Shown here one piece after another: positions 38,341 to 58,997 of a stretch of 64,000 bases of DNA; positions within the stretch are counted from its first letter, which is position 1, and every line of letters starts with the position of its first letter. Origin of the DNA: Pseudarcicella hirudinis (lineage in GTDB: Bacteria; Bacteroidota; Bacteroidia; Cytophagales; Spirosomataceae). The DNA is taken from positions 179,777-243,776 of the forward strand of contig NZ_FOXH01000001.1 in the NCBI RefSeq assembly GCF_900115665.1. The letters run 5' to 3'. Below the pieces are notes generated by a model, which was not told where the DNA came from, searched no databases, and saw only the letters and a program-made list of their open reading frames with translations. The translations under genes were made by a program, and so were the position numbers.

Positions 38341-38965
38341 TTAATAATCGAATTGGTTAGAATATGTATAAAAGTACTGTTGAAAATTGTTGCAATTAAT
38401 AAAAATGAATTAAATAATTTATTCTTCCGGTATGAGAAGAATCTGATTCAGCGCTTGAAAAGCCTGCTTTAATCCGGTTTTCGGAAAAAAATCAGGCAAA
38501 TGCCTGCTGAGCTTTCTGAAATTCTTCAAATCCCTGAAAGAGAAACCATTAGATTTTAACGATTTTCCTATGTTTTCGCTGGTTTATACTTCAGGTGAAA
38601 CTGAATACAGGCCATTTCTCACCCAAAATGGTATTTAGCCTTCCGCTTCCTTTTACAAACTTACGTGTAAAATCCTTATTATCGGACTAAAAGTACCTCT
38701 CATAGTCATGCAAAATTTTGAGAGGGAGGATATTTAAATTAAAATATCAGATGCAAAAAATATAGAAAGGCTTAATAAAGAGTGTGTTAGCTGCCTGAAA
38801 GAGGATTTTGTGAAAAAAACGCAGGAAATATTTATTTTTTATGTAACCTGCCGCCTGCCGCGGGGAATATAGTTGTAAAAACAAACAAATAAACTCCGGC
38901 ATTTTGAAAGGCTGGCAAACTAACGGATTACCTAAACATATTTTTTAATTTAAATTCAAAAATTC

Positions 38966-39463
38966 ATGAAAAAAATCTTCTTACTCAAAGTATTGTTTGT
39001 GGCTGTTGTTATCTCATTGACCTCGCAGGCTTCTAAAGCCCAGTATATGTCTGCCGGGACAAGAACTGTAGATGCAGGCCTTTATCTGCCAAGCGGCTTT
39101 ACGGTTTTCAAAGCGAATCTGATGTATGGTGTGGCCAATAACATCAGTGTCGGAGGTCAGGTAGAATTGGCTTCAGGAACCGGAAGCAGTGAGTTCGGAT
39201 TGAACGGACGGGCAAATTATCATTTTGCACAATTAATGGGATTAGAGGATAATGTGAATATCTACGGAGGGGTTTCAATTGGTAAATATTTCGCAGAAGG
39301 TCTTAAGGACATCGGTATTCTCGGACAAATAGGTGGCGGATATATGTTTAATGATAAGATAGGAGCACATGCTGAAGTTCGTTTCGGTTTGTCTAAAGGT
39401 TATGCTCTTACAGTGGATGGTTCTCAATTCGGATTAGGCCTGACTTTTAAGTTGGGGCAATAG
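38966..39463 (+). CDS. Small outer-membrane beta-barrel protein
   Basis: Signal ...LTSQASKAQ. Gly-rich amphipathic strands. Ends ...LGLTFKLGQ. Confidence 0.45.
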   Translation: MKKIFLLKVLFVAVVISLTSQASKAQYMSAGTRTVDAGLYLPSGFTVFKANLMYGVANNISVGGQVELASGTGSSEFGLNGRANYHFAQLMGLEDNVNIYGGVSIGKYFAEGLKDIGILGQIGGGYMFNDKIGAHAEVRFGLSKGYALTVDGSQFGLGLTFKLGQ

Positions 39464-39620
39464 CATTCAGGAAATGACCGGCTCTTCTGGTTTGCAGAAG
39501 AGCTTAAAGATAATTTTCCAAGGTGAAAATTGATTTAGAAGAGTGATGAATGTACTATTGAACCCATGAATAATCCCAGGCGTATCGATAGTACATTTTT
39601 ATATAATGTTATAACTTTGA

Positions 39621-40643
39621 TTGAATCCTAACCCGATTGCTATGAAAAGCAAAGCATTTTTCCGGATAATGTCTTTTGTACCTGTTCTTTCGGTTGCGAT
39701 CCTGACTGAATGTAAAACGGAACTGCCTCCCGTCATTTTAAGCAAATCAATCAGCGGAGTGAGGAATGATATTCCAAGAAAAGCGACAGATGCCTGTTTA
39801 ATCCGCTATGCTCAGGGGAATAATTTTATCGGTTTGAGTGATAAAGTTCAGTTAAGTGCTGTTTCTGATGCGTTTTCTGTCTGGCAGAAAGCCAATAAAA
39901 ATGTACTTTTTTTGAATTATAGTGTGCCTGAAAAGGCAGAAATACTGATAAAATTTGTTGAACCATCAGAAATAGGAGGGGATCGGGTCTTTTCAGGCGG
40001 CGGCTTATTCCCGATTGGAATTGCTAATCTTACCTCCGGTAAATTTGCCGGCAAACAATTTATCATTTCAATTGATAACACTTATCCCTGGACGAAGGAA
40101 AGTCTTAGCCGTGCCATTGCTTATCATGCTGGCCTTTTTTTAGGAATGGGTACCTCCGACAATGCCAGCTCAATCATGAATCCGTATCTGAATGATAAGA
40201 TAAAAACACTTTCTCTTAAAGATTCATTATCATATAATCAGCTATATTCCAGTTCATGTCGTGATCTGGATTGCAATTTTTTACCCATATCTTTTAAGTT
40301 AAATACGCTGGTAAATAAATGCCTGAAAATTGAAAAGGAGGGAACGGTTGTCATTAAAGCCTCCGGACAAATCTGGTTCGGGCAATGGCTGCAATATGGC
40401 AAACCTGATGGCAGGGCAGATGGTTTGTTTGGTTTTCCGCTGACAGGATACAAAATCGTTCCGGAGTTAAATTTCGGGGCATTGATGTACAAACTTAATC
40501 AGGAAAAAAGCTGGCATCCCTGCGGATCGGAATGTGAATTTAAGGTAGGAGCAAATCAGTACCTGGATTTAAGTCTCGATGTCAATGATAATGAAAAGGG
40601 AGATAATGCCGGTGAATTTGATATTCTGATAAATTATAAATAA
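39621..40643 (+). CDS. Matrixin (M10)-like lipoprotein with degenerate zinc site (pseudo-metalloprotease). Paralogue of 47425..48381
   Basis: Lipobox ...AILTEC. AFSVWQKANKNVLF (matrixin AFxxW...F). YPWTKESL (DExWT-like). AIAYHAGLFLGMGTS...SIMNPY aligns to HExxHxxGxxH...M-turn (xxMxP), with E replaced by A and two His replaced by F and G. Confidence 0.5.
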   Translation: MNPNPIAMKSKAFFRIMSFVPVLSVAILTECKTELPPVILSKSISGVRNDIPRKATDACLIRYAQGNNFIGLSDKVQLSAVSDAFSVWQKANKNVLFLNYSVPEKAEILIKFVEPSEIGGDRVFSGGGLFPIGIANLTSGKFAGKQFIISIDNTYPWTKESLSRAIAYHAGLFLGMGTSDNASSIMNPYLNDKIKTLSLKDSLSYNQLYSSSCRDLDCNFLPISFKLNTLVNKCLKIEKEGTVVIKASGQIWFGQWLQYGKPDGRADGLFGFPLTGYKIVPELNFGALMYKLNQEKSWHPCGSECEFKVGANQYLDLSLDVNDNEKGDNAGEFDILINYK

Positions 40644-40955
40644 TCTGTTTTTTTTGTTACCAAATGGTAAATATGAATGAGCCGCAGATTTTGCCATGAA
40701 GTGTTTTGTCTGAGAAATTTTCATCAGAATTTTAGATAAAGCACTAAAAAGAGAGAATTGTGCAAAAATCTGGTGGTCAATAAATTAAGGTTTGTTTTTG
40801 TATTCATGTTTCAGGGAGAAATATTAAATTTTAATAGGTTGAAACATCAGCTTCCCGATTGCTTTTTTGGGTATTTTTGAACATTTTTGTTGAGGAGCCT
40901 TCGATTTGAAAAGGTTTTACTCCTAACCATTTAATACCACCAAAATAATACGGGT

Positions 40956-43748
40956 TTGAAATTTATGAAATATCGGGTAAACGATTTTCTCTGTTATACA
41001 AAAGCATTTTATCTTGCACTGATCTGTTCGCTTATTGTGCCTTTATCAGAAACCCCTGGTCAGTCTGATAACAAATCTACCCTTATCCAAAATAACAAAA
41101 AAGAGCAGAAATTCTTTGAAACCTTAATCGATGAACTAGAGAAACTCTACAGCAGTAATGATCTTCCCGGAGCCAATACAAAAGGAAGAATTGTTTTAAA
41201 ACTGATTGAAAAATCCCCTTCTCCGCATTTTGTCTCTAAATTTAAAGTGTATTCATTCCTTGCGGCAAATTATGTAAAGCAGGATCGTGAAGATTCCGCA
41301 GTATTCTTTTTTCAGCGCGGCAACGAATTATCGGGTATTTCTCATGAGCTGACAGAGAAGATTCCCGACTATGTCTGCGCACATTGGGGTAATCAGGGAG
41401 TGTTCTACAGAGATAAAGCAAATTTTATCCAATCTGTTAATTGCATCAATAAAGCTATTCAGATTGTGGATCAGTATAGACTAAAGCGTTACAGGCCGAT
41501 TTTACTGAATAATCTTGCCAACAGTTATGATCTGATGGGTAATTCTGAGAAAGCCCTTACCCTGTATAAGCAGATTGAAAGACTCGGTTTACCCGAAGAT
41601 ATTCAACAGGTTTATATACTTTCATCTATGGGCTGGAACTCGTTAAGGCTTAAACAAAATACCAGCGCAGCATTTTACTTTAAGAAAAGCCTGAAATTCT
41701 ACAGAAAACTCCTCAGAAAGAAAGCCATTTCAGAGGACAGTGAATTGGAAACGAGACTTCTGTATCATATTGGTCTTTGTGAATCAAGAACTAAATCCTA
41801 TCAGCAAAGCAATCTTTTTTTAACCAATGGCATTAATGCGCAATTATCCAAAGGATTATTAAAAGGCCGATACCTTGCCTTATGTTATGACCGAAAAGCA
41901 AGAAATGCCGGAGAAAACGGACAAATTTCAGAGGCATTGTCTTTTATTCAGCAGGGTTTGATGGCTGTAGTCCTGAATTTTGACGATTTGAATCCTAAAA
42001 AAAATCCGGAGCTGTCGCAGATAAACCTCGGACAGCAGACATTATTTCAATTACTGGCATTTAAAGGAAAACTACTTTTTCAACTGTATGAAAAAACACA
42101 TAATGAAGAATTGCTTAAGTCTTCAGTCAAGACTTTTCAGCTGGCCGTTATGCTTGCAGATAATTACAGAAAAGAGATTGATTTTCAGGATGATAAAGTG
42201 TATTTTACACAGTCGAATACAACTGTTTTCCATGAAGCGATAGAAGTGACCTATCAATGGTATATCAAAAGTCCTTCGAGGGAAAAAGCTACTATTTTAT
42301 TTGAATTAATTGAAAGCAACAAAGCGGTTTCATTGAATGATTTTGTTGAACGTTATAAAACTGAAGAACCAAAGATACCAGGTGATCTGCTTTCCAATGA
42401 AAAGAAAGAGATGGCTATCAATTCAGGACTGAGGCAAATGATCCTGCAAAATGCCGGCAGGGAAAAACCCGATAGTCTGAAAAAGCTTTTGACAGACAGC
42501 GAATTGAGACTTTATCAGATAAAAGCGACTATTTCAAAACACCTTCCGTTTAATATTTACCGGAATACAGAAAAGACATTTTTATTGAAGGAACTAACGG
42601 CATTACTAAGTAAAGAAACAGCCTATCTGAGCTATACATTTACCGATTCCGGGAATTTACTCGTCATGGGATTAAGTAGTAAGTCGTTTATAATCAGGAA
42701 AATACCTGTTTCAAAAGAATTCTATGACGAAGTTTCCGGTTTAATTCCAAAATTACATACTAATCCTATTTTTCAGGGATACCTCGGGAATAAGGAGGGA
42801 ATCCGGCTGTATAATTACCTGATCAAACCCATAGAACATTTTCTGGCCGGAATTGAGCGTTTAATAATTTGCCGTGATGGTGCGCTTAATTACCTTCCTT
42901 TCGAGGTATTGGAAACAGGGAAGAAGAAAGACGATTACCTGGTTAATCATTATGCTGTTACCTATGTTTATTCCGGATTAAGTTATGTGCTGCGGCATGA
43001 AAATGAAACTACTTCGAAGAATCGATTGCTTACGATGGTACCATTTAACCACCAGCGGATTACAGCAGAGGGAGATACCTTAAAAGCACTGAGAACTTCC
43101 GAGCAGATTAAAAAAATGAGTCATCGCTGGATCAGCGATAAAATGGCTACCAAAGAAGCATTTATTCAAAATATTAAAGAAAATAACCTGCTGAATCTGG
43201 TGGTTCATTCAGACATGGATCCTTCGGATCCGGCAAATTCCTATGTATATTTTTATCCGGATTCGAAAAAAGAGAAATGGAAACTGGGCTTTTACGAATC
43301 TCTCTCTTTACCCTTACAGAACTGTAAATTACTGGAAATAAGCTCATGCAATAGTGCAAATGGTCAGTTTGAGGCAAATGAAGGGCTTATTTCATTAACC
43401 TATGCTTTTACAAGAGCAGGCTGTCGTTCGGTAGTTGGTGCACAGTGGAAGGCACATGACCGCTCAAGTGCCTACATCAGCGGGTTGTTTTTTGAATACC
43501 TGAATAAGGGTTTTCCGAAAGATATTGCCCTGCAAAAAGCAAAGGTAGATTTTATCCAATCTTCCGTTGGACTGGATCTGGATCATCCTTTTTACTGGGC
43601 GAATTTAATCCTTACTGGAAGTAATCAACCGATTGCTGATAAGGTCGGATTACCTGTCTGGCTGATTGTATTGATTACATTGGCGCTTATCAGTTCAGCC
43701 ATATTGCTAAGAGTCAGGTTTTTCACCGGAAAAGCTAAGAGTGAATGA
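40956..43748 (+). CDS. Membrane-anchored TPR-repeat plus CHAT-domain (caspase-like) protease
   Basis: N-terminal signal/TM. Central TPR-like helical repeats. C-terminal CHAT with His (LVVHSDMDPSDP) and Cys (LLEISSCNSANG) dyad motifs. Terminal TM helix PVWLIVLITLALISSAILL. Confidence 0.8.
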   Translation: MKFMKYRVNDFLCYTKAFYLALICSLIVPLSETPGQSDNKSTLIQNNKKEQKFFETLIDELEKLYSSNDLPGANTKGRIVLKLIEKSPSPHFVSKFKVYSFLAANYVKQDREDSAVFFFQRGNELSGISHELTEKIPDYVCAHWGNQGVFYRDKANFIQSVNCINKAIQIVDQYRLKRYRPILLNNLANSYDLMGNSEKALTLYKQIERLGLPEDIQQVYILSSMGWNSLRLKQNTSAAFYFKKSLKFYRKLLRKKAISEDSELETRLLYHIGLCESRTKSYQQSNLFLTNGINAQLSKGLLKGRYLALCYDRKARNAGENGQISEALSFIQQGLMAVVLNFDDLNPKKNPELSQINLGQQTLFQLLAFKGKLLFQLYEKTHNEELLKSSVKTFQLAVMLADNYRKEIDFQDDKVYFTQSNTTVFHEAIEVTYQWYIKSPSREKATILFELIESNKAVSLNDFVERYKTEEPKIPGDLLSNEKKEMAINSGLRQMILQNAGREKPDSLKKLLTDSELRLYQIKATISKHLPFNIYRNTEKTFLLKELTALLSKETAYLSYTFTDSGNLLVMGLSSKSFIIRKIPVSKEFYDEVSGLIPKLHTNPIFQGYLGNKEGIRLYNYLIKPIEHFLAGIERLIICRDGALNYLPFEVLETGKKKDDYLVNHYAVTYVYSGLSYVLRHENETTSKNRLLTMVPFNHQRITAEGDTLKALRTSEQIKKMSHRWISDKMATKEAFIQNIKENNLLNLVVHSDMDPSDPANSYVYFYPDSKKEKWKLGFYESLSLPLQNCKLLEISSCNSANGQFEANEGLISLTYAFTRAGCRSVVGAQWKAHDRSSAYISGLFFEYLNKGFPKDIALQKAKVDFIQSSVGLDLDHPFYWANLILTGSNQPIADKVGLPVWLIVLITLALISSAILLRVRFFTGKAKSE

Positions 43749-45028
43749 TTTGCTGCAACGCAGTAACTTTTGATTTCATGCCGGGAATATTTAATAAAAA
43801 GGAAAATATGAAGGAAAATTTACTCTTACAGCAGGTAATACAGGCATACCAGGGGACAGACTCAGTAGTCAGGAGAAAAGCTATTGATAAATTTAAGGCA
43901 GAATTTACGCATAAATTGACGAAATATGCAAAAGATCAATTCGGGAATGATGAAGTAAGTAGTGCAGTGAACAAAAGTTTTGAGGATTTTTTGCTCACCG
44001 TAATTGGGTGCAATTATATTCCAGATGAAGTGTTCAAATCATTGAAAGACTTTTTACTTATTGATTATTACGAAGAAAAACTGTACAACGATTTTAAGGT
44101 TTTTCTTTCGCATAAAGACAGAACTCTGTTGAGTACGGAAAGAAAACTCAGAAAGGTTAATCAGGCTTTGCTGAATTTTTTATCTGAAAAACATTTGCGA
44201 AATGAATTGTCAGAAACTCCTGAGGAAGAGCCTTTTGCATTAGCCAAACTCAGCCATGACTGGATTAATGAGTTTACTTTCAATATATACCTGTATAAAA
44301 TTCTTTCGGGAGAAAGAAATCTTAAACATAACAGGACCCGGAAGCTAAAGAATATTGTGACGGATTCCTTCGCAGTTTTTATGCTTCGTTTTTCTCAGAA
44401 TAAAAATTCGAGAACCAGAATTGAGGGAGAAATAGGGTTTAATGTTCGCCTCCAGCTTGGCAGATTTGAGAAGGAAATGAAGACGATTGATACATTTCCC
44501 GATATTTTTTCCAGATCGCTGGAAATCCTGCTCAATAAGTTAAAAGAAAGTGATACAGTTCTCAAAACAACAATAATTCAGTTCTGGCTGGGTATTTTAA
44601 GGAATCAGCTGAAAGAAGGCAAAAAAGAAATTAACCCGAATAAAAGTAAGGTAAATATTGATGATGAAATAGATTACTCCGGTCGTCAGAATCTGAGAGA
44701 AGAAATATTTGCATTTATTCAGGAAGGGCTGGAGGCTATAAAGGATGTTCATGGTGGAAAGGCCATGAAGTTACTTTTGACAGGAAGACCAGGCAGGTTT
44801 ACCATAATTGTTATGGCTGCCACATTTGATAATATTCCGGATTGGCTAAAAAAAAGCCCCGACCCTGATTATGGAAATAAAGCTTCTGAAGCGCAGCAAA
44901 GGCAGGACTGTAAGAAAGCTCTGGTTCAATGGATGAATCTTCAGGTAGATGATCCTGAGAGCAACTGGTATGGGAACAGAGGACGGAATTTGATTGATTT
45001 CATTTGTAAAAAACCCGGAAAGAAATGA
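43745..45028 (+). CDS. Divergent ECF-sigma-like protein with ~180-aa C-terminal extension (translationally coupled to the CHAT gene)
   Basis: ATGA overlap with the upstream stop (alternative start at 43808 after aaaaaggaaaat). A region-2-like segment (...KSFEDFLLTV...) and a region-4-like HTH (FAVFMLRFSQNKNSRTRIEGEIGFNVRLQLGR, compared with canonical VFVLRY.EGLSYEEIAEILGISVGTVKSRL). Resemblance judged by eye only. Confidence 0.4.
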   Translation: MICCNAVTFDFMPGIFNKKENMKENLLLQQVIQAYQGTDSVVRRKAIDKFKAEFTHKLTKYAKDQFGNDEVSSAVNKSFEDFLLTVIGCNYIPDEVFKSLKDFLLIDYYEEKLYNDFKVFLSHKDRTLLSTERKLRKVNQALLNFLSEKHLRNELSETPEEEPFALAKLSHDWINEFTFNIYLYKILSGERNLKHNRTRKLKNIVTDSFAVFMLRFSQNKNSRTRIEGEIGFNVRLQLGRFEKEMKTIDTFPDIFSRSLEILLNKLKESDTVLKTTIIQFWLGILRNQLKEGKKEINPNKSKVNIDDEIDYSGRQNLREEIFAFIQEGLEAIKDVHGGKAMKLLLTGRPGRFTIIVMAATFDNIPDWLKKSPDPDYGNKASEAQQRQDCKKALVQWMNLQVDDPESNWYGNRGRNLIDFICKKPGKK

Positions 45029-45759
45029 GTAAAACGAATAATGACGGAAATTTTGAGGAAATAGAAAAGTTTCTTCATGGACAACTTAGTCCTGAAGCAG
45101 AATTACTTTTTTATCAGAGACTTAAAACCGATGAAGCATTTTTAAGAGATTTTCAACTGTGGACCAATCTGGAAGACTGGCTGGAAGAGGTTACAGAAAA
45201 TGAAATAAAAGCTGCTGTTAATATTCAGCCGATGGGGAGCGCCCGTCATGAAGGTGAAAATAAGGGAATTGTTTTGAAAATGCTGACGAATAAAAAACAA
45301 CCGGTATTAGTTATGCTGGTATTGATGGTTTGTTTTGGAGGTTTAATGTATTGGTATGTAAGGTTTTATGAAAGTGGTTCTGAGCTGGTTACCGGACAAA
45401 TGAGTTATATTGAAGGTAACACTAATACCGGGAAAGGAGCATTTGAGGGAGATGGATCCGTTGAGGCGAAAGTACCATTAAACTGGCGGGCTGAAAAGTA
45501 TGAGGGAAAAGATATCATGTATCAGTTTTTTTACCCGGACTCTCTATCCAGTCCTACAGAAATCATTTTCAGAGTTCCTGACCTGACTAAAGATTTTGCG
45601 AAAGGAGCGATATTATTTTATAGCTGGTCACATAAAAAGTTTATCCTGAAAATGGATAACCAAGTCTTTTTTATCAATAAAACCCATGATTGGGAAAAGT
45701 TAGTCCCTCATAAAAATGAAGAAAATTTACGGCCTGATAGCAATAATTCTGATAACTAA
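45025..45759 (+). CDS. Anti-sigma-factor-like single-pass membrane protein
   Basis: ATGA overlap with the upstream gene. The N-terminal FEEIEKFLHGQLSPEAELLFYQRLKTDEAFLRDF parallels the N-terminus of the anti-sigma at 60140 (LDAIERFCRGEMNTPEKEEFDRLLTNDPLLAKE). Central TM VLVMLVLMVCFGGLMYWYV. Confidence 0.45.
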   Translation: MSKTNNDGNFEEIEKFLHGQLSPEAELLFYQRLKTDEAFLRDFQLWTNLEDWLEEVTENEIKAAVNIQPMGSARHEGENKGIVLKMLTNKKQPVLVMLVLMVCFGGLMYWYVRFYESGSELVTGQMSYIEGNTNTGKGAFEGDGSVEAKVPLNWRAEKYEGKDIMYQFFYPDSLSSPTEIIFRVPDLTKDFAKGAILFYSWSHKKFILKMDNQVFFINKTHDWEKLVPHKNEENLRPDSNNSDN

Positions 45760-47428
45760 CTTTTCGGCATTTTGTCAGAACACAAAATGTGAATGTGAGG
45801 ATGTACTGAATAACAGAAATCCGGATAAGAGCTTTTTTCCCCTGAAAGATGCTACGAAGGAAAAAATAGATAAATGGGTAAACAAGATATTTTTACCTAT
45901 TTATAACGAAGCCCTCAGAGCCAGAGGGTTGCCTCAGTTTATCAGACTGGAAGTGAATGTTTTTAGCGTGAACTGTGTATCCGGCTATGGAGCTCTGGCA
46001 AAAAAATGCGAAAAGGAAAAGATTAACGGGAACCCTTTAATGATCCTTTATGATGAACAGTTTATCAATAAAATAGATCTGAAAAATGAGCTGAATACTT
46101 TGTTTGTATTGGCTCATGAATTAGGTCATATCGTTTCTGATCACTATCACAGCACGCTTCCCTATGATGAGTCTTACGATAATTATCTGAAAAAATTGAA
46201 CAAAAGTTATTACAGAGAAGAGCAGGATAACCGTGACAAGAAAAAAATGACTATCAGTGAAAAACACCTTGAGGAACTGACAGCTGATGGTTTTGCTATT
46301 TGGTTTCTCCGGAAGTTTTACGAAAAAAATCAGAGTAATAAAGCCATTGCCAGACAATTTGATCCGAAGAATTTATTACAGATTTTCCCGTCCATTGAAG
46401 AGCTTGAACCTGCAAAGTGTAAGGAGTCAGATTCTCATCCGGGTTGTAAAAGAAGACAATATTTCATCAGTAAGTTAATGGCTTCCGGGAATTGGGAGCA
46501 GGTAATGAATTTTAAAAAGAACATAAGAAGTTTTGCTTCAGAGTATATCGATTCAACCTATACCATTTTGTCTAAAAAAGAGATTGAACAAATGGGGCAG
46601 ATTGCTAAAAGAGCAAGAGAGAAAATTACCGGAGATTCTCTGAAGAGGATAGGAGAGCATTTTCTGAATAAGGAACAATACCTGAAAGCTGATTCATATT
46701 TTAAGCAATCAATTGCCATTTATTCTAATCTGGTTTATCCGGAAGACTCAGCAGATGTGGCACAAAAACTGGAAGAACTTAAGCAGATTTTATCAGTCAG
46801 ATCCTTTTCAAGATTGTCATTGCTGGGAGGATTGGATTTTATTAAGCCTCATCTGGTTTCAGGAAATGAGTCAGTTAACGCCACAAATGCCGGAATCGGG
46901 TTTGCAGGGCTACGACTGGGGAGATATAGTTATACCCGAAAACTTGGTTATGAGATAGATTTTAAATATGCTCTTCAGACACTTCAGTTTGATACTTATA
47001 AAGATGAGGCATCTGCTATTGAACGGTTTAACAGTTCCTCAATCTATATTCAACCCAGAATTGCCTTTAAACTGATTTCTGACGTCAGAGATAATAATAC
47101 CAGAGGTCTGATTCTTTCTGTAGGCCCCTCGCTGATGTATCCTTTAAATTTTAAATATCAGAATTTCTCCGTAGGAGGGGGGAATACACTTGGTGTTACG
47201 ATGAAACCGTCGGCAGGAATTAATTTTGGCCTGGGTTATGAGTATTTGCACAGAAAACTGACAGGAAGTACCTGGAATCATTGGAGGGTATCTTTAAATG
47301 GAGGATACCAGCCACTTAAATTTGAAAGTGAGCAGCTTGTAAATCAAAATTACTCAGCGGGTTTCTGGTTGCTGGGGCTTGACTTTACACTTGGAATTTT
47401 ACCTAAGTTTTTAATAAAAAAAGAATGA
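45716..47428 (+). CDS. Secreted HExxH zinc metallopeptidase-like protein with C-terminal beta-rich (possibly barrel) domain
   Basis: Signal MKKIYGLIAIILITNFSAFCQ. FVLAHELGHIVSDHY carries an intact HExxH. The C-terminal half has alternating-hydrophobic strands. The 5' end overlaps the upstream gene by 44 nt. Confidence 0.5.
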   Translation: MKKIYGLIAIILITNFSAFCQNTKCECEDVLNNRNPDKSFFPLKDATKEKIDKWVNKIFLPIYNEALRARGLPQFIRLEVNVFSVNCVSGYGALAKKCEKEKINGNPLMILYDEQFINKIDLKNELNTLFVLAHELGHIVSDHYHSTLPYDESYDNYLKKLNKSYYREEQDNRDKKKMTISEKHLEELTADGFAIWFLRKFYEKNQSNKAIARQFDPKNLLQIFPSIEELEPAKCKESDSHPGCKRRQYFISKLMASGNWEQVMNFKKNIRSFASEYIDSTYTILSKKEIEQMGQIAKRAREKITGDSLKRIGEHFLNKEQYLKADSYFKQSIAIYSNLVYPEDSADVAQKLEELKQILSVRSFSRLSLLGGLDFIKPHLVSGNESVNATNAGIGFAGLRLGRYSYTRKLGYEIDFKYALQTLQFDTYKDEASAIERFNSSSIYIQPRIAFKLISDVRDNNTRGLILSVGPSLMYPLNFKYQNFSVGGGNTLGVTMKPSAGINFGLGYEYLHRKLTGSTWNHWRVSLNGGYQPLKFESEQLVNQNYSAGFWLLGLDFTLGILPKFLIKKE

Positions 47429-48381: not shown

Positions 48382-48460
48382 AAAAATATTAATCTTTATG
48401 TAACCAATAAAATTGTAGTGGTACTATCAGGGTGTTTTAATTCTATTTTTAACAACTGAT

Positions 48461-49468: not shown

Positions 49469-49605
49469 TCTTCCGGTAAATAGTGAAACAGTCAGAACAT
49501 AATTTCCTGTCCGGAGCATTTCCGGATAAAGAGGACACCTTTGCCCTTACCAGGATAAATACTTTGAAAAAGCCATAAATCTTAAATCAATTGATCTGAA
49601 ATCCG

Positions 49606-50748: not shown

Positions 50749-50773
50749 TATTCACGCAAAACGACCTGAGATT

Positions 50774-51667: not shown

Positions 51668-51671
51668 ATCT

Positions 51672-52796
51672 ATGAAAATACAATGTGCTCTCATCTTATT
51701 GATTTCTTTGTTCATGGAGAATTGTATCGGAAATTCTTCCGGAGAAGGAAATGCCGCTTCCCTGAAAATAGTTCCCTTTACTCCGGAACTCAGAACGCAA
51801 CAGGAACAGATGTTAAATGCTTTTGATAAGAAGATGCTGAATACTTATCCGGTTACAATTTTAGTAAATGCACCATTATCAAAAGACTCGACCGCACATC
51901 TGCCGGATGTGTTTAAAGTATTATTAGAATATAAGGGAAATGGAGGCTGTATGGATACTGAAATTTTACCGGTAGGGACCTTGCGTAAAATCGGGAATAA
52001 TCAGGAATATAATCTTTTTCCTGCATTGATAATACCGCCATCGTTTGACAAAAGTAAGATTACGTTACTGCTCAAACCTCAGATTGACGGATTTTGGAGG
52101 AGTGCTGTGCTTAGGAAACTCTTTGTACAGCCTCCCGTTAATCCGGATAACTATCTCAAAGAATTGCCTGAAAGTTCTGCTGAAATTTTTGTGCTGGAAA
52201 GCAAGACTGATGCCCGCATTTCAATAGAGTTGCCCGGACAGAAAAAGTACCAGGTTTTTAAGGATCCGGAAGAATTGAGAAAAAAAATGGATGAACTGGC
52301 ATGTGCTTCTTCCGGGAAATTTAAGGCCCTTGTGCTTTTTGGCCTGAATCCCGAGAAAACTCAAAAAACAACAGCTACAGCCATACCAGGAAATTCTCAG
52401 AAAAAAGTACCCGATCCGGTTAGGCAGCCCATAGAACTCAAAGGAAAGAAAAAGCCGGAGAATCAGGCAGAGGTAATTAATACCACTATTATAGGCGGAG
52501 AGGGTAATCCTGAAGTGAAAGAAAGACTTCGCCTGTTAAAAAATAACCTGAAAATAATGGTTTCCGGGGGGGACATTCTCATAACAAACCGTGCTTATGA
52601 AGCGGCTTTAGCCATGTTTGAAAGTGAAACGTTTGTAGATGTTTTCAGCCTCGATAAAAGCGGAAGCAAGCGATTCAGGATCAAAAATTTCCTGATCCGG
52701 AATAAACTGATGCGACAACCCATTGCCATTGAGCAAATCAGGGTTTCAGGAAAAACTTCCGGACAGACTTTTGACCAGATGAGGGTGATTGAATAA
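51672..52796 (+). CDS. Hypothetical lipoprotein
   Basis: Lipobox ...LFMENC. No motif recognised. Confidence 0.4.
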   Translation: MKIQCALILLISLFMENCIGNSSGEGNAASLKIVPFTPELRTQQEQMLNAFDKKMLNTYPVTILVNAPLSKDSTAHLPDVFKVLLEYKGNGGCMDTEILPVGTLRKIGNNQEYNLFPALIIPPSFDKSKITLLLKPQIDGFWRSAVLRKLFVQPPVNPDNYLKELPESSAEIFVLESKTDARISIELPGQKKYQVFKDPEELRKKMDELACASSGKFKALVLFGLNPEKTQKTTATAIPGNSQKKVPDPVRQPIELKGKKKPENQAEVINTTIIGGEGNPEVKERLRLLKNNLKIMVSGGDILITNRAYEAALAMFESETFVDVFSLDKSGSKRFRIKNFLIRNKLMRQPIAIEQIRVSGKTSGQTFDQMRVIE

Positions 52797-52802
52797 ATCC
52801 TG

Positions 52803-53687
52803 ATGAGAATGAAAATCTTTATTTTGATATTTTGGGCGTTTACAGTCAGTTACGGTCATGCACAAGCCCGGATAGAGCGTCAAAGGATTGAAGATAAGTC
52901 TGTTATTTACGATCGGCAGGCAGAAGAAAGGTTTGCTTTCCAGGTGAAAACCATTGATGAATTTATGGAAAGATTTAATGATTCTGAGTCCACGCTTCTT
53001 CGGAAATACCTGGATGTAAGCAGACCAGGCGTTATTAAATCTGACCGGATCAGAATGCTGAAGGCTTTGTTTGAAAAGAAAAGTTTTGTCAAAGATTCTT
53101 TAAAAACGGCTTTTGCAGCATCTGTTTGTGATAGTTTAAATCCTCAGTTTCTTAACTTTTTTCAGAAAAACTGGTATGCTCAGGCGCAATGTTTATTTCA
53201 GGATGGGGCTCGTAATAAGTACATTACCTTAGTTCTGAAGGTTTTGAGAACTGCAAACGGTGGAAGCAAATGGGTCATAGCCGGTGCAAGTGAATACGGT
53301 ATAGCAAAACAAAATAAAAGTACTGTCCGAATGACAGGAGGAGATACCCGGAAGGGACTTAATCCTTATAGCCATGTGATGGATTTTACAGAACTGGAAG
53401 ATGCACTTGAGGATAAAATAAATATCGAAAGTTACCTGGATGAAGGCTTTCTGACACTTAAAAATCAACCGATTATCGAAGCGATCCTTTCCGGGAAAAT
53501 AAGATTTAATTATGTGCAGGAAATTACCTACCATTTTCTCCAGATTGAGGGCTGGATCTTTTCCGTTCAGAATTTTAAAAGAATGACAAGGCAATCGGGC
53601 TGGCTGATCACTCAGCTGCAGCCTGCCGATAAAGAGGAGAAGGATTTTTATAAACAGGCCGTATTAGCGCTGAAAGTAACACAATGA
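52803..53687 (+). CDS. Hypothetical secreted protein
   Basis: Signal MRMKIFILIFWAFTVSYGHAQ. Confidence 0.4.
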   Translation: MRMKIFILIFWAFTVSYGHAQARIERQRIEDKSVIYDRQAEERFAFQVKTIDEFMERFNDSESTLLRKYLDVSRPGVIKSDRIRMLKALFEKKSFVKDSLKTAFAASVCDSLNPQFLNFFQKNWYAQAQCLFQDGARNKYITLVLKVLRTANGGSKWVIAGASEYGIAKQNKSTVRMTGGDTRKGLNPYSHVMDFTELEDALEDKINIESYLDEGFLTLKNQPIIEAILSGKIRFNYVQEITYHFLQIEGWIFSVQNFKRMTRQSGWLITQLQPADKEEKDFYKQAVLALKVTQ

Positions 53688-56581
53688 AAGTATCTGTAAT
53701 AATTGGAAGCCTTATTTTAATTTCTTCCTTATCCCTGAAAGCGCAGCAGGATAAGGAGAATATACCTGTATATGTAAAAGACGGCTCTCAGATTATTTTT
53801 CAGGCAAATCAACTTTTAGAAGAATACAGAGACCTTCTGAATGTCTTGTCTTACAAAGAAATTGATGGAAAATCTACAGAAGACCTGATAACCCACAGCT
53901 ATAACGGACCCATTAATAAGCTTTTTTATAATAAGAACATAACCGTTGAAGATGATCTGGAAGCAACTCTTCTAAACGGTCGGGCCGTTAAGAAATCAAT
54001 CGATAGATACCTTCGGGATTTTGATTTGTTTTATGAGAAAACAGAAGAAAGCTCTGTCGTTTTCAGGAACCTCAGAATGTCGAATGTTAAAAGAACGGCT
54101 GAATACATTTATGTTAAAATTGATTTTGATTGTGAATTTGGAAGCAGGCACCGTCAGACTAAATCCGGTTATACCTCTCATCAGAGAACTATGGAGTTTC
54201 GGGCTGATAAAGCAGGTAAGAAGTGGCTGGTTTATATAGTTCGTATAGGTAACTACGTTTTGCCGCAAAATGAACAGGAAGAACGGCTGAATGATGTAAA
54301 GTTATGGCCCGATATTCAAACGAAAACAACCGGAGAATCTGTCGGAGCGGAATTGTCTCAGCCGGAAATACAGGAACTTCTCGATAAGGAAATAAAAAGG
54401 CTGACGGATGAATTTAAAATAGATCAGGAAGCCAAAGAAAAGATTGTCAAAGAAATTTTGAATAAGGCCGATATTGCGTTTGGACAGGAAGATCTTGAAG
54501 AAGCCCGCAAATTATATGAACAGGTAAAAACTTTTTGGCCCAATATTGAATCAAGACATATTGCAAGACAACTGAGAAGAATTGCTCAATTGGAGGAAGA
54601 ATTAAGGACAAAACCCGAAAGGATGAGCCTTGAATTTGCCCTGAAGGGTAGAAATGCCGAAAGACTTCACCGGTACGCGGAGGCTAAGAACTGGTATGCA
54701 AAGGCTTATGAACAAAAACCGGATCAGGATTCTTTACTTAGAAAAATAGAAAATTTAAATCTCAGAATCAGGGTTTTATCATTCATTGAAGCAAAAATTA
54801 TTGAGGGAAATGCTGATAAAGCGGTGGAGGAATGCGAAAGAGAAATTGATAAATTAAGAAATGGGAAAAAGAAAATTGACGATTCAAAATTGCCGCTTTT
54901 CTCTGACTTTCTGACCTGGAAAGCAAGAGCACTTGCCAAACAAAATAAGTCTGGACAGGCGGAAAAAAACTTTAAGGAAGCTGTTGCTACCGATCCGAAT
55001 AATGCGGAGGCTTTTCGCTATCGGGCATTGCTGAATTACCAGCGGAAACTTTATACGGAATCAATTGCAGACCTGAAGGTTTATCTGACATTTGATGAGA
55101 ATAATACCATTGCATTAATTGATCTGGCCAGATCATATTTTGGCATCAGAGACAGTACAAAAGGAGTTGAATTCCTGAATAAAGTATTAACGATTGAGCC
55201 TCAAAATGCTGTAATAGCTTATGAAAAAGCCCTCATGCTTCATTATTGGGGGAAAGCTAAAGAGGCGGCAGAAGCATTCACCAGGGTATTAAATCTGAAT
55301 TATAACATGGCAAATGTGCTTTTTTACCGGGGACTTAACTATGAAAAGCTGAAATTATATAACTATGCCATAAATGACTTTCAGCAGTTACAGCGAGTCG
55401 GGGCCAGTGCCGACCAGAATACTGCCATTTTAAGCCTTGCTAACAATTATTTCAAAGAGGGGAAAAGTTATTATGATTTGAAGCAATATGAAATAGCGAT
55501 CAACCAATTCAGGATAGCTACCATGTTTTGGGTAAATCATTATGAAGCATGGTTTTGGCAAGGGCTTGCTTTTAAAGAGTCAGATCGGTTTTCAGAAGCC
55601 CGTAAAGCGCTTTCCAAAGCTATTGAAGCAGATCCTTCACAGGCCTGGGCTTACTATTATCGTGGCTTGTCAGCTTTTTCAGATGATGAGCAGGAGGAAA
55701 GCATTTCTGATTTTGAAAAAGCTTTTGAATTATCTTCATCCATTTATCAGGCTCCTGTTAATCAGGGAGATGCACATACTGAACTGATGCAGTATTCACT
55801 TGCAATTGAAGCATATTCAAAGGCTCTGGCAGGAGAGTGGATAAGAAAATCCGAGAATTATAACGGATTATCACTGGTTTACGGGAAGAGGGCAAATGCC
55901 TATTTTAAGCAAAAAAATTACCTGAAAGCTCTTGCTGATTTTGAAGAATGCCTGCGATTCAACCGAAGGTACTCTGATGGATATTTCCTGAGAGGTCTGA
56001 CCTATCTGGAAAAAGATGATTATTCAAAAGCCAATGATGATTTTAACAAGGCGATTGAACTGGGTTTTGATCCGGGACAAGGTCATTTTTACAACGGAGA
56101 GGCTTACAGAAAGAGGAAGAAATTTGAAATAGCGGTAAATGAATATTCCGCAGCCCTTAAAAGAGAAGAATGGATTCAGAAACGGGCTGAAGCTTTTCAC
56201 CAAAGAGCTTTTTGCTACAGTAAGGTTAATCAATATTCATTGGCATTAGCGGATTTCCAATCATATGAAAAGATCGTTTCAGGTAATCTCACCGATGCTT
56301 CGAAAAAAGAGTTTGGGTTTATTTATCTCCTCAACGGTAAAACTGCTGAGGCTAAACAGGAATTTGAAGCAGTACTTAAACTACAGTCTGCCGATCCGGA
56401 GGCTTTATTCGGACTAGGCGTTTATCACTTTTTTGAAGGAAATATGCCCGAATCAGACAAATATTTTGAAAGAGCTGCAAATATGAATAAGCTGACTATC
56501 AGGGAAATGCGTCTGGGCATCTCAGGACAATTATTTGAAAACAGTAAACTGAAGAAAAGAGTAGAGAAAATAATTAAATAA
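53684..56581 (+). CDS. Large secreted tetratricopeptide-repeat (TPR) protein
   Basis: Signal peptide. More than 15 recognisable TPR units (W-LG-Y-A-F-A-P pattern, e.g. AEAFRYRALLNYQRKLYTESIADLKVYL, AWAYYYRGLSAFSDDEQEESISDFEKAF). ATGA overlap with the upstream gene. Confidence 0.75.
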   Translation: MKVSVIIGSLILISSLSLKAQQDKENIPVYVKDGSQIIFQANQLLEEYRDLLNVLSYKEIDGKSTEDLITHSYNGPINKLFYNKNITVEDDLEATLLNGRAVKKSIDRYLRDFDLFYEKTEESSVVFRNLRMSNVKRTAEYIYVKIDFDCEFGSRHRQTKSGYTSHQRTMEFRADKAGKKWLVYIVRIGNYVLPQNEQEERLNDVKLWPDIQTKTTGESVGAELSQPEIQELLDKEIKRLTDEFKIDQEAKEKIVKEILNKADIAFGQEDLEEARKLYEQVKTFWPNIESRHIARQLRRIAQLEEELRTKPERMSLEFALKGRNAERLHRYAEAKNWYAKAYEQKPDQDSLLRKIENLNLRIRVLSFIEAKIIEGNADKAVEECEREIDKLRNGKKKIDDSKLPLFSDFLTWKARALAKQNKSGQAEKNFKEAVATDPNNAEAFRYRALLNYQRKLYTESIADLKVYLTFDENNTIALIDLARSYFGIRDSTKGVEFLNKVLTIEPQNAVIAYEKALMLHYWGKAKEAAEAFTRVLNLNYNMANVLFYRGLNYEKLKLYNYAINDFQQLQRVGASADQNTAILSLANNYFKEGKSYYDLKQYEIAINQFRIATMFWVNHYEAWFWQGLAFKESDRFSEARKALSKAIEADPSQAWAYYYRGLSAFSDDEQEESISDFEKAFELSSSIYQAPVNQGDAHTELMQYSLAIEAYSKALAGEWIRKSENYNGLSLVYGKRANAYFKQKNYLKALADFEECLRFNRRYSDGYFLRGLTYLEKDDYSKANDDFNKAIELGFDPGQGHFYNGEAYRKRKKFEIAVNEYSAALKREEWIQKRAEAFHQRAFCYSKVNQYSLALADFQSYEKIVSGNLTDASKKEFGFIYLLNGKTAEAKQEFEAVLKLQSADPEALFGLGVYHFFEGNMPESDKYFERAANMNKLTIREMRLGISGQLFENSKLKKRVEKIIK

Positions 56582-56589
56582 CTAAAAAT

Positions 56590-57912
56590 ATGAAGAAAAC
56601 CTTACTGATTATCCTGATAACATTTTGGTTGTCAGATCGTACTGCTTTTGCTCAGGTGAAAACCGATAGGATCTACCGGACCGATAAGACAATTATTGAA
56701 GGAAAGATTGAGGAAATTTCCGAGACTGAAATCCTGTATAAAATATCCGGAAATGCAAAAGCTCCGGTGAAGCATATTGCCAGGAAAGATGTCCGGCGAA
56801 TAGTATATGCCAACGGAAAAGTAGAAGAACTGACTTTACCAGCGGCCTCAAAAGTGGCTTCAAATAAACAGAAACAAAAGGATGGAGTAAAAACAACCGA
56901 AACCTCCAAGTCTGCTGCGTCCAAAGAAATACCGGTGGTGGAAGTAAAAAAAGAAGAAGAAAAGGTGGCTGAAATAACGAAGCCTGCCGCTCCAAAAGTA
57001 ATGTCTGACAGAATAATCAGAAAGGATGGCGGTATAGTGGAAGGTAAAATTGTAAATGCCAGTCCGGGTAAAATAGAATATAAAAACCCTGATGATAAAG
57101 AAGAAACGATCTACTTTATTTCCGGGGCGGATGTGGCAAAAATAGAATATGCTGATGGAAGAATAGTGGATATGACAGCTTCGGTTAAACCTCCTTCGGC
57201 TAAAAAAGAAAAGAATAAGGATAAACCCAAATCTGATCCGGTGGTAAAGAAACAGAACAGAAAAAAGATCACGTTCGACCAGGAAATTGCAGGACAAAGC
57301 GGGAAAGGAAAACCCAGGCAGTTACTGGATATTCCGCGGTTTGTTATTGGTGTAGGTGCCGAAGCCAGCTATGTGTTGGAGCCTCTCAGTAAAAAATGGG
57401 TTTCTACCTCCGACAGTATTGGCTTACAGCAAGGTTTTGGCGGAAGCCTCAGAGCCGATCTTCATGTTACGAAAGGCATTGCGCTGAGTTTGGGAGCGGG
57501 GTATAATGTCTGGCAGGTAAAACGTAATTATGTTACGACTGACATTACTACCAATACTAAAGTGGTTCAATATGCTACGCAGGATAAATTTCAGGTAATT
57601 CCGATTCAGGCTGGTATCAAATTGTACCTGATGAAAGGCTTTTACCTCATGCCTGAGGCTTCTTTTAATATCATTACGGCCTCGTCATCCTATAAAGATG
57701 GTATTGTGGTCAATCCAAACGGAAATAAGACAAGCTCGACCTCGGTCAGTAAAATCGGATATGGCGGAAGTATAGGGTGTGAAATTTATAAGCTACCAAC
57801 CGTAATTGACATTTCTGCCCGTTTTCAGGTAATTAATGCCGAGCAATTCAGAAGCCTTAATGAACCACTTTATTATGCAGGTTTAAGATTAGGTATCGGA
57901 ATCGGCAAATAA
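56590..57912 (+). CDS. Secreted protein with two N-terminal copies of the 49606-gene module, a Lys/Pro-rich linker, and a C-terminal outer-membrane beta-barrel-like domain
   Basis: Signal peptide. Repeated module (see 49606). The C-terminal ~200 aa have alternating aromatic/hydrophobic strands ending ...YYAGLRLGIGIGK. Confidence 0.45.
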   Translation: MKKTLLIILITFWLSDRTAFAQVKTDRIYRTDKTIIEGKIEEISETEILYKISGNAKAPVKHIARKDVRRIVYANGKVEELTLPAASKVASNKQKQKDGVKTTETSKSAASKEIPVVEVKKEEEKVAEITKPAAPKVMSDRIIRKDGGIVEGKIVNASPGKIEYKNPDDKEETIYFISGADVAKIEYADGRIVDMTASVKPPSAKKEKNKDKPKSDPVVKKQNRKKITFDQEIAGQSGKGKPRQLLDIPRFVIGVGAEASYVLEPLSKKWVSTSDSIGLQQGFGGSLRADLHVTKGIALSLGAGYNVWQVKRNYVTTDITTNTKVVQYATQDKFQVIPIQAGIKLYLMKGFYLMPEASFNIITASSSYKDGIVVNPNGNKTSSTSVSKIGYGGSIGCEIYKLPTVIDISARFQVINAEQFRSLNEPLYYAGLRLGIGIGK

Positions 57913-58028
57913 AACTACACTTGAAATGAGGCTGTATTCGTGTGCTGGTTCTACCCTATTATTTTAAATCAAATAGCCTGTAAAAGGCGCAGCAATTTTT
58001 ACCTGAAAATTAACAGTTGTTTTAATTT

Positions 58029-58997
58029 ATGTCTGATTATCAAATTTATACCATGAAAAAACTTTGCTTTATTCTCCTTTTTAAAGGGGTAATGCTGGCC
58101 TGTCTCTCGGTGTCAGCTCAGATTCCTTCGGTGCCTGGAACTACCGGCAATGCTGAAAACCTCACCCGGGAAACCAGTGACCCCACTCAGGAATTATTTC
58201 CGAGGATTAGCCCGGATGGTAAATTTTTACTATACAATGCGCTGGAAATATCATATTCTCTCAATATTACCAACGGCAAGCTTGAGCAAAAGACTAATAA
58301 AAAGATGAGAATTGTTAAAAAAGAAATAGGAAAGCCTATCACCAATCCTTTGGTAAATAATGCGGCTTATCCTACCTGGATGCCTGATAATTCCGGCATT
58401 ATTTTTAGTTATATTAAACCGGAAAAACCTGTAATTGTGAGATCGGATATTAATGGAAATGGCTTATTTTACATATCAGCAGGTGCCATGGGTGAAGATG
58501 ACGCTGAGCCAGTGGTTACCAAAGACGGAAGTAAAATCCTTTTTACCACACTTATGAGCGGAAGCAGGATGATCTGTTCCATGGATATGAAAGGAGGAAA
58601 TTATTCGGTTCTAGGAGAAGGAAGCCATTTAAGTTTAAATCCGGCGGATAATAACAAAATCATTTATAATATGAAGGTTGGCAAACTGATACAGGTATTT
58701 ACGATGAATCTGAGAACGGGAGAAAAAACCCAGCTGACGACCGGAGATTATAACAACAGAGACGGAGCTTTTTCAAAGGATGGCCGATATATCGCTTTTG
58801 CCAGTAACAGAGAAAATCCCAAGAAGGAAAATAAGCATATTTATGTCATGAAAGCAGATGGAACAGATCTTATTCAGATTACCCAGGGAGAAACAGATGA
58901 GGGTGATCCGTGTTGGGGCAATGATAATACACTGTTTTTTAGTTCTAATGCGGAAAAAAATTACAATATTTGGAAAGCAAGGATAAAAGTTAAATGA
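58029..58997 (+). CDS. TolB-like periplasmic beta-propeller (PD40/WD40-like repeats) protein
   Basis: Signal peptide. Repeated ...SPDGK.L.Y... / ...SKDGRYIAFASNR... / DG(T/S) blades typical of TolB C-terminal propellers. Confidence 0.7.
   Translation: MSDYQIYTMKKLCFILLFKGVMLACLSVSAQIPSVPGTTGNAENLTRETSDPTQELFPRISPDGKFLLYNALEISYSLNITNGKLEQKTNKKMRIVKKEIGKPITNPLVNNAAYPTWMPDNSGIIFSYIKPEKPVIVRSDINGNGLFYISAGAMGEDDAEPVVTKDGSKILFTTLMSGSRMICSMDMKGGNYSVLGEGSHLSLNPADNNKIIYNMKVGKLIQVFTMNLRTGEKTQLTTGDYNNRDGAFSKDGRYIAFASNRENPKKENKHIYVMKADGTDLIQITQGETDEGDPCWGNDNTLFFSSNAEKNYNIWKARIKVK

Follow-up and report, generated by a model that had tools for sequence, protein, structure and literature searches.

A split, DdvA-like CHAT protease as the candidate switch of an ECF sigma factor regulon in Pseudarcicella hirudinis

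Background

The DdvA/DdvS system of Myxococcus xanthus includes an extracytoplasmic function (ECF) anti-sigma factor with a periplasmic TPR-CHAT region that faces the protein's own transmembrane (TM) linker, and this region has been proposed to act as a self-cleaving site-1 protease ahead of RseP (PMC11506125). Here we describe a gene cluster of the freshwater species Pseudarcicella hirudinis (Bacteroidota, Cytophagales, Flectobacillaceae) in which a TPR-CHAT protease and an ECF sigma/anti-sigma pair are encoded by separate genes of one conserved unit. The window that we analysed is the whole stretch of 64,000 nucleotides (assembly GCF_900115665.1, contig NZ_FOXH01000001.1, positions 179,777 to 243,776 of the forward strand), and coordinates given for the cluster are positions within this window. 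To our knowledge, DdvA is the sole characterised link between a periplasmic CHAT domain and an ECF anti-sigma factor. An earlier note on this DNA, which stated that no characterised system resembles the cluster, overlooked it. Because DdvA/DdvS already joins an ECF anti-sigma factor to a periplasmic TPR-CHAT region, we regard the cluster as a variant and not as a new kind of system.

Classical intramembrane proteolysis of ECF anti-sigma factors is represented by RseA/DegS/RseP and by RsiW/PrsW. Csx30 and Csx31 are associated with the ECF sigma factor RpoE. Csx30 is cleaved by Csx29, the TPR-CHAT protein that accompanies Cas7-11 in the type III-E craspase (PMC10028731). Nucleoside triphosphate (NTP)-dependent conflict systems require an NTPase core, and the paper that describes them mentions no sigma, ECF or anti-sigma association (Kaur et al. 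2020; PMC7159879).

A CHAT protease, an ECF sigma factor and an anti-sigma factor

Fifteen plus-strand open reading frames (ORFs), here called g1 to g15, occupy positions 38966 to 58997. The earlier note had described them as co-directional envelope genes; an ORF check found every one of them at the coordinates given there, the domains listed were borne out, and the same genes are called in the P. hirudinis assembly GCA_042681385.1. Its endpoint at 58997 falls 1.8 kb short, as three more genes directly follow g15, encoding a small lipoprotein (minus strand), an ECF sigma factor and an anti-sigma factor, and the cluster ends at 60832. We consider it moderately likely that the approximately 22 kb from 38842 to 60832 constitute one regulon under the co-located ECF sigma factor (59571 to 60143), gated by a periplasmic CHAT protease that would be a split counterpart of DdvA. 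The genes at the centre of this reading are as follows.

40956 to 43748, plus strand: g3, TPR-CHAT caspase-like protease (Pfam CHAT E 4e-41; TM segments; His/Cys)
59116 to 59313, minus strand: small lipoprotein, 65 amino acids (mature form about 46 amino acids, C-terminal end DPPILPSTGGPPK), divergent from the sigma gene
59571 to 60143, plus strand: ECF sigma factor, 190 amino acids (Pfam Sigma70_r2 and r4; TIGR02937 54.6 bits against a cutoff of 42.9)
60140 to 60832, plus strand: anti-sigma factor, 230 amino acids, with a cytoplasmic N-domain, one TM helix and periplasmic TPRs (predicted), joined to the sigma gene by an ATGA overlap

The likely start of g3 is the ATG at 40965, and the protein is 927 to 930 amino acids long. 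Its CHAT domain (PF12770) scores 141.7 bits against a Pfam cutoff of 24, and TPRs are also present. This score agrees with the TPR-CHAT protein of the earlier note, and the TM predictions agree with its description of anchors at both ends: the N-terminus has a hydrophobic segment (signal or anchor), and the C-terminus a TM helix followed by a basic tail. The catalytic dyad, the absence of which had been named as grounds for abandoning the proposal, is intact (His751 and Cys798) and invariant in six orthologues. Its two terminal segments predict that the protein resides in the periplasm, anchored to the inner membrane. Sequence searches of the PDB with full-length g3 and with its CHAT domain found no relatives and no detectable similarity to any chain.

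The identity of the ECF sigma factor and the architecture of the anti-sigma factor can be regarded as established for the cluster. The anti-sigma polypeptide of the cluster carries no CHAT domain. Among 15 aligned orthologues, its most conserved stretch is an invariant juxtamembrane motif, VQLPGSENDLTIVRDxD, on the predicted periplasmic side of the membrane.

The small lipoprotein is present in every related locus checked (12 loci, including the distant L018 and L019; L-numbers denote related loci here and below). Its position, strand and lipobox Cys are kept, and the C-terminal motifs are related. The gene lies on the minus strand at 11960-12130 in L002, 11991-12164 in L004, 8726-8908 in L010, 8906-9124 in L012 and 1203-1328 in L018. 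Across the loci the mature peptide is 24 to 50 amino acids long and ends in a Pro/Gly-rich segment (DDPP..SGNGRP, PPTLPSTGGxPK). The peptide could act on the CHAT/anti-sigma module as a ligand, pseudo-substrate or inhibitor, and together with the pseudo-matrixin described below it is a candidate modulator or ligand.

A shared promoter motif

Alignment of the regions upstream of the sigma genes, followed by a listing of TGTAAC sites, yielded an ECF-type motif, TGTAAC-N16-G(G/T)A(A/C)T, that is common to the related loci, where its sites precede genes for sigma, LytTR, vWA and g2-like proteins and a PKD/CHU_C gene. The exact consensus has four matches in the window against 0.13 expected, and three of these are found shortly before g1, g8 and the sigma gene. 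A position weight matrix (PWM) was trained on the other loci only, with the window excluded; these three sites alone exceed 12 bits in the window, where the maximum per shuffle was 10.8 to 18.4 bits (20 shuffles).

38842 to 38868, plus strand: ECF-type promoter motif TGTAACC-N15-GGAAT, about 100 nucleotides upstream of g1 (exact match; PWM 17.7 bits)
43762 to 43788, plus strand: tentative promoter AGTAAC-N16-GGAAT, located after the CHAT stop codon and before the probable start of g4 (one mismatch; PWM 10.6 bits; weak alone)
48399 to 48425, plus strand: ECF-type promoter motif TGTAACC-N15-GTACT, 36 nucleotides upstream of g8 (exact match; PWM 23.8 bits)
59405 to 59431, plus strand: ECF-type promoter motif TGTAACC-N15-GGAAT, upstream of the sigma gene (exact match; PWM 27.0 bits, the top score in the window)

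The vWA orthologue in L012 has the identical motif at the equivalent upstream position, and sites equivalent to that at 59405 precede the sigma genes of L010 and L012/L013. The sigma factor thus appears, on the strength of the motif, to be autoregulated through the 59405 site. Since the motif stands before g1, g8 and the sigma gene, with a one-mismatch site before g4, it ties the 22 kb together as a likely regulon of the local ECF sigma factor. A scan of sigma-70-type promoters remained at chance level (55 found against 53 expected).

A further site, TGTTAC-N16-GGAAT, lies at 47194-47220 (plus strand) in the 3' end of g6, 230 nucleotides upstream of g7; with a PWM score of 10.4 bits it may be an internal promoter or a chance match. 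A different motif, GAAATAACC(C), is found at 59376-59384 (plus strand) between the lipoprotein start and the sigma promoter, with equivalents in L002, L005, L006, L009 and L010. It occurs five times in the window against 0.94 expected, four of the copies falling within 59376-61730, and could be an operator or the promoter of the lipoprotein gene. In three Arcicella loci (L004 at 11847, plus strand, L005 and L007) the only match to the ECF-type motif on the upstream side of the sigma gene is found past the small lipoprotein gene. Transcription driven by the sigma factor from such a site would therefore cross that gene in antisense and could act as a feedback device. In L010 (15622) and L012 (15820) the motif is located upstream of genes for 1130-amino-acid PKD/CHU_C proteins of the type IX secretion system (T9SS) surface type, beside PorP/SprF genes, which suggests that the regulon reaches secreted adhesin-like proteins.

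Conservation among related loci

Further loci were found by searching with the anti-sigma factor. The relatives are Arcicella genomes and freshwater metagenomes, and the core of the cluster recurs in about 15 other loci. Orthologues of the ECF sigma factor and of CHAT (35-42 % identical) are present in all related loci, in all of which the anti-sigma orthologue adjoins CHAT. The CHAT orthologue adjoins the sigma/anti-sigma pair in every locus with enough flank, that is, in Arcicella rosea, gelida, rigui and lustrica (L004-L007) and in the metagenome loci L002, L010, L012, L014-L016, L018 and L019.

Gene content around this core follows several patterns. L012/L013 contain, in rearranged order, orthologues of g6 (its end), g8, g9, g12-g15, the lipoprotein, sigma, anti-sigma, CHAT, g2 and g1. 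In L010 we found a g14-like gene, g15, sigma, anti-sigma, CHAT and g2. L018/L019, the most distant loci, with an anti-sigma factor that is 32 % identical, encode in this order a g2-like protein, CHAT, the lipoprotein, sigma, anti-sigma, a 390-amino-acid protein, g5-like and g6-like proteins, barrel proteins and a g14-like protein. The Arcicella loci and their metagenome relatives have, in order, LytTR, g4-like, g5-like and small lipoprotein genes (the last on the minus strand), then ECF sigma, anti-sigma-TPR and a convergent CHAT gene, all of them orthologues of genes in the window. These Arcicella-type loci (L002, L003, L004-L007, L015) keep a CHAT/sigma/anti-sigma/g4/g5 core with other cargo, namely caspase C14, Peptidase_C1+DUF4384 and further DUF4384 proteins, stand-alone LytTR proteins, an FGE-sulfatase protein and a second sigma-like protein of 187 amino acids.

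The invariant core is CHAT, the small lipoprotein, the ECF sigma factor and the anti-sigma factor, usually with the pseudo-matrixin, and the cargo is variable. We regard the cluster as a conserved unit because orthologues of g1, g2, g3, g6, g8, g9 and g12-g15 recur together with sigma and anti-sigma in L012/L013. As far as our searches reach, this putative split form of CHAT-gated ECF signalling is restricted to the Arcicella/Pseudarcicella lineage and its relatives.

Two pseudo-matrixins

39621 to 40643, plus strand: g2, lipoprotein with a matrixin-like pseudo-protease and a C-terminal beta domain (Pfam M10 28.4 bits; adjoins CHAT in L010, L012 and L019)
47425 to 48381, plus strand: g7, lipoprotein with a second matrixin-like pseudo-protease (Pfam M10 31.1 bits; no His motif)

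Both proteins score above the Pfam threshold for Matrixin (24 bits) and are paralogues of each other (E 1e-11); the gene caller places the start of g2 at 39642. The zinc motif HExxHxxGxxH is lost in g2 (YHAGLFLGMGT) and in g7 (LTGKVLGLQVS) despite the above-threshold fold match, and we therefore consider both to be pseudo-enzymes. The orthologues of g2 are likewise without the zinc motif, and YHxGLxLGM is present in all of them. By eye, the end motif DNxGxFxVxI of the g2 C-terminal beta domain (40263-40640) resembles PA-IL/LecA lectins; comparison of the domain with a lectin of this type gave weak matches (BLASTP E 0.19; hhalign E 0.02, probability 2 %).

A second sigma-like pair and its neighbouring metalloprotease

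43808 to 45028, plus strand: g4, cytoplasmic sigma-70-like protein of a very rare family (listed ORF from 43745, likely start 43808)
45025 to 45759, plus strand: g5, single-pass membrane protein with an anti-sigma-like cytoplasmic N-domain (TM at 94-112)
45716 to 47428, plus strand: g6, secreted M48-like HExxH metalloprotease with a C-terminal domain resembling an outer-membrane barrel (HELGH at 134, downstream EELTAD)

Homologue alignments and the gene caller both place the start of g4 at the ATG at 43808. The g3/g4 ATGA overlap at 43745, from which the earlier note had deduced coupling of the two genes, is therefore doubtful and probably an artefact of ORF extension; the 60-nucleotide gap between g3 and g4 holds a hairpin and a promoter-like site. 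The note had also coupled a sigma-like and an anti-sigma-like protein directly to CHAT. Its anti-sigma-like assignment of g5 stands, since the N-terminal 70 residues are homologous to the N-domain of the cluster anti-sigma factor (hhalign 95.9 %, E 6.5e-9), whereas the coupling is doubtful and the canonical partner pair of CHAT lies outside the coordinates that it gave.

Homologues of g4 amount to 10 cluster representatives in 1.84 billion proteins and 4-7 clusters in a set of 5.8 billion, and a profile scan of genome contigs returned four Arcicella species only, P. hirudinis itself, which is either masked in that collection or not its species representative, not being among them. Residues 22-95 of g4 align with the start of the cluster ECF sigma factor (E 1.9e-4), and in an AF2 model g4 has a sigma2-like fold. 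This model was built from a 10-sequence alignment, as the one from a 4-sequence alignment was too poor (predicted local distance difference test score, pLDDT, 52). A sigma4-like C-terminus is suggested by eye only. No Pfam or NCBIfam sigma family matches g4, and one of the 10 family members reaches Sigma70_r2, at E 0.18. A Foldseek search of the model against the PDB gave nothing significant (sigma chains make up 15 of the 50 top matches), and a PDB sequence search with the g4 profile found no relatives. The 390-amino-acid protein at the g4 position in L018 was considered as a relative and rejected, as no similarity to g4 or to sigma domains could be detected.

The g5 gene always follows g4, a pairing kept even in the most divergent member of the g4 family. 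The g6 protein scores 18.9 bits for Pfam M48, just below the cutoff of 20.3, and its positional equivalent in L018, likewise located after a g5-like gene, exceeds the cutoff with 24 bits. The overlap of g6 with g5, seen both here and in L018, raises the possibility that g6 gates the g4/g5 pair.

Other cargo genes and flanks

38966 to 39463, plus strand: g1, small secreted protein of 165 amino acids, probable outer-membrane beta-barrel (signal peptide; weak OMP_b-brl match; L012 orthologue E 4e-36)
48461 to 49468, plus strand: g8, vWA lipoprotein with the metal ion-dependent adhesion site (MIDAS) motif DxSxS (Pfam VWA E 8e-9; L012 orthologue E 1e-127)
49606 to 50748, plus strand: g9, secreted protein; its N-terminal small beta module is also found in g14 (E 9e-6), and its C-terminal domain is about 170 amino acids long
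50774 to 51667, plus strand: g10, multi-pass membrane protein, variable, no family match (TM segments; not found in L012)
51672 to 52796, plus strand: g11, lipoprotein-like, variable, no family match (sequence and signal prediction; no L012 counterpart)
52803 to 53687, plus strand: g12, secreted protein, no family match (L012 orthologue E 4e-122; distant homologues in L002, L004 and L006)
53684 to 56581, plus strand: g13, secreted protein of 965 amino acids comprising an N-terminal domain, a coiled coil and numerous TPRs (Pfam TPR families; L012 orthologue E 5e-250)
56590 to 57912, plus strand: g14, secreted protein with two small beta modules, a Lys-rich linker and a C-terminal barrel-like domain (L012 orthologue; L018 homologue)
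58029 to 58997, plus strand: g15, PD40/TolB-like beta-propeller lipoprotein (Pfam PD40 E 2e-22; TIGR02800 E 2e-25; orthologues in L010 and L012)

Much of what the earlier note had read from the individual genes holds. It had named two matrixin-like pseudoproteases, and g2 and g7 combine Matrixin scores above the threshold with the absence of HExxH; it had named an intact HExxH metallopeptidase fused to a beta-rich domain, and g6 has HELGH with its M48 score just under the cutoff. The vWA/MIDAS lipoprotein (g8), the TPR scaffold (g13) and the TolB-like propeller (g15) agree with the Pfam and TIGR matches, and the small module common to two proteins is that of g9 and g14. Pfam and NCBIfam scans of 17 cluster proteins found no NTPase domain in any of them, again as described.

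Most cluster products are secreted or lipoproteins, according to signal peptide, TM and lipobox predictions. Pfam, NCBIfam and PADLOC contain no family match for g4, g5 and g9-g12, Pfam domain-only searches with eight sub-regions gave no match, and neither did Rfam. Iterated hidden Markov model (HMM) searches gathered a family of 21 members around the C-terminal domain of g9, all within these loci. A domain common to the C-termini of g9 and g11, to g12 and to the N-terminus of g13 had been proposed by eye and was rejected, as the searches converged on the 21 g9-type domains and did not recruit the others. The g12 gene is kept in Pseudarcicella-type and Arcicella-type loci alike. In L012/L013 the g9 and g12 orthologues have no equivalent of g10 and g11 between them, so that these two genes look like a lineage-specific insertion. 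After g15, a hairpin with a T-run is visible by eye at about 59055-59090; the terminator scan lists a site there on the minus strand only (59073-59060).

The cluster is flanked by housekeeping genes on the minus strand, with the pentose-phosphate genes and their neighbours (ROK, RpiB, Gnd, Zwf, Pgl) upstream and two oxidoreductase-type genes downstream. The GC content is even across the region (0.37-0.40).

Proposed mechanism and alternative explanations

We propose that in the resting state the sigma factor would be held at the inner membrane by its single-pass anti-sigma factor. The g3 protein would serve as sensor and site-1 protease, and when active would cut the anti-sigma factor within the invariant juxtamembrane segment PGSENDLTIVRDxD; the protein's own TPR array, the neighbouring pseudo-matrixin g2 or the conserved small lipoprotein may bring about its activation. 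Intramembrane proteolysis would next free the sigma factor, which would transcribe its own operon and the g1 and g8 operons, and perhaps g4, from TGTAAC-N16-G(G/T)A(A/C)T. The output would consist of envelope proteins, including outer-membrane barrels, the vWA lipoprotein, the TPR scaffold, the TolB-like propeller and the M48-like protease. A second and divergent sigma-like/anti-sigma-like pair within this regulon would be that of g4 and g5, for which the neighbouring g6 may be the gate. A fuller version would be a two-tier cascade, in which CHAT works in trans as the site-1 protease for the ECF anti-sigma factor and is checked in a securin-like manner by the lipoprotein and/or the pseudo-matrixin, and the ECF sigma factor then turns on g4 (about 400 amino acids, a previously unrecognised and very rare sigma-70 subgroup) and g5, gated by an outer-membrane-anchored, M48-like g6. 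As a whole, this cascade strikes us as speculative and rather unlikely.

Several points weigh against a sigma regulon gated by CHAT. Among 15 orthologues, the anti-sigma N-domain contains no conserved His/Cys set and no HxxxCxxC zinc motif, and the protein matches no Pfam anti-sigma family. The promoters are assigned from a motif, the exact form of which was not found in the distant loci L018/L019. Only in the window are CHAT and the sigma gene apart, with 15.8 kb of cargo between them. DdvA dyad mutants had no phenotype under the conditions tested, and CHAT cleavage of the anti-sigma factor is unproven in that system (PMC11506125). Moreover, CHAT could equally be a target of the sigma factor and not its regulator, and CHAT as cargo is the main rival to CHAT as switch. 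The sigma pair would then sense some other envelope cue, for example through the anti-sigma TPRs or the lipoprotein, and the proteases and pseudo-proteases would process surface proteins in envelope remodelling or in an adhesion apparatus. The motif upstream of the g1-g2-g3 unit makes CHAT itself appear sigma-dependent, the same motif precedes a T9SS-type PKD/CHU_C surface protein gene in L010/L012, and the preponderance of secreted proteins and lipoproteins would fit such a role. However, the tight linkage of CHAT and anti-sigma genes, often 3'-overlapping, holds even though the cargo differs wholly (caspase/DUF4384 in Arcicella, vWA/TPR here), which argues for a partnership of CHAT with the regulator and not with the cargo, and autoregulation is compatible with being a switch. 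We consider CHAT as an output somewhat unlikely, and favour CHAT as the switch.

The earlier note had offered envelope proteolytic signalling or a conflict system as alternatives. For the latter, the CHAT module would detect an invader-derived protein and trigger a protective or suicidal envelope response against phages or rival bacteria. Caspase C14, Peptidase_C1+DUF4384 and FGE-sulfatase-type domains recur in predicted prokaryotic conflict systems. Proteins with these domains are encoded in the Arcicella loci, the accessory genes are highly variable, and the distribution is narrow; in addition, DdvA/DdvS controls an island that combines a cyclic-oligonucleotide-based antiphage signalling system (CBASS) with clustered regularly interspaced short palindromic repeats (CRISPR) (PMC11506125). 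However, PADLOC models gave no meaningful match among 10 proteins, Pfam and NCBIfam identified no NTPase, nuclease, toxin or CRISPR component, the cluster is bordered by housekeeping genes and not by a defence island, the base composition bears no sign of recent transfer, and the apparent regulon is one of envelope proteins. We therefore judge a conflict role to be improbable, and from the earlier pair of suggestions retain envelope proteolytic signalling, for which the conserved unit, the shared ECF-type motif and the intact dyad speak. That unrelated envelope genes came to lie side by side by accident, as the earlier note had allowed, would accord with the many genes without a family and with the absence of g10 and g11 from the closest related locus, yet 12 genes recur together in L012/L013, the core recurs in about 15 loci and the transcription units share a promoter motif, so that we consider an accident very improbable indeed.

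Comparison with known systems

Because the protease and the anti-sigma factor are separate genes and the presumed cleavage segment is invariant, the proposal that CHAT is a site-1 protease is testable by simple co-expression. The value of the split version lies here, as DdvA combines the protease with its presumed substrate in a single polypeptide. A reporter could be built on the defined promoter motif, and the conserved partner proteins (pseudo-protease and small lipoprotein) may reveal how CHAT proteases stay inactive. The locus also yields a very rare new sigma-like family (g4), and it points to a CHAT-gated ECF module in Bacteroidota that is wired to differing cargo, with vWA, TPR and barrel proteins here and caspase/DUF4384 proteins in Arcicella.

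With the conflict systems of Kaur et al. (2020) the cluster shares a vocabulary of caspase-superfamily protease, vWA and TPR domains, as well as gene content that varies among relatives. It differs from them in the absence of an NTPase and of any STAND or MoxR component, and its components are predicted to be extracytoplasmic. As in the craspase, a TPR-CHAT protease is linked to a sigma/anti-sigma-like module, with regulated proteolysis as the signal. The craspase is cytoplasmic, RNA-guided and CRISPR-associated, whereas there are no cas genes here and the protease is predicted to be periplasmic. The RseA and RsiW types are matched in the single-pass anti-sigma factor, the proposed periplasmic site-1 cut, the release of sigma and the putatively autoregulated ECF promoter. 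In contrast to these, the site-1 protease would be a caspase-fold CHAT protein encoded beside the pair and not one of the DegS/PrsW type, and no site-2 protease is encoded in the cluster. ECF54, a group with CHAT in its genomic context, was considered for the cluster sigma factor and set aside, since it concerns Actinobacteria.

DdvA/DdvS and the present cluster both have an ECF sigma factor, a single-pass anti-sigma factor and a TPR-CHAT region that retains its His-Cys dyad and is predicted here to be periplasmic and anchored in the inner membrane. The phyletic range of each is narrow, and for each it has been proposed that CHAT makes the site-1 cut in the juxtamembrane linker. In the P. hirudinis cluster, unlike in DdvA/DdvS, CHAT is a separate polypeptide, the anti-sigma factor is only 230 amino acids long with a short TPR region, and its N-domain is without the CHCC/ZAS zinc motif. 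The systems further belong to different phyla, Bacteroidota here and Myxococcota there, and the apparent regulon here is one of envelope proteins, with no adjacent antiphage island, in place of CBASS/CRISPR. Beyond the elements that it shares with DdvA/DdvS, the cluster has extra conserved partners in the pseudo-matrixin, the small lipoprotein and the second sigma-like pair.

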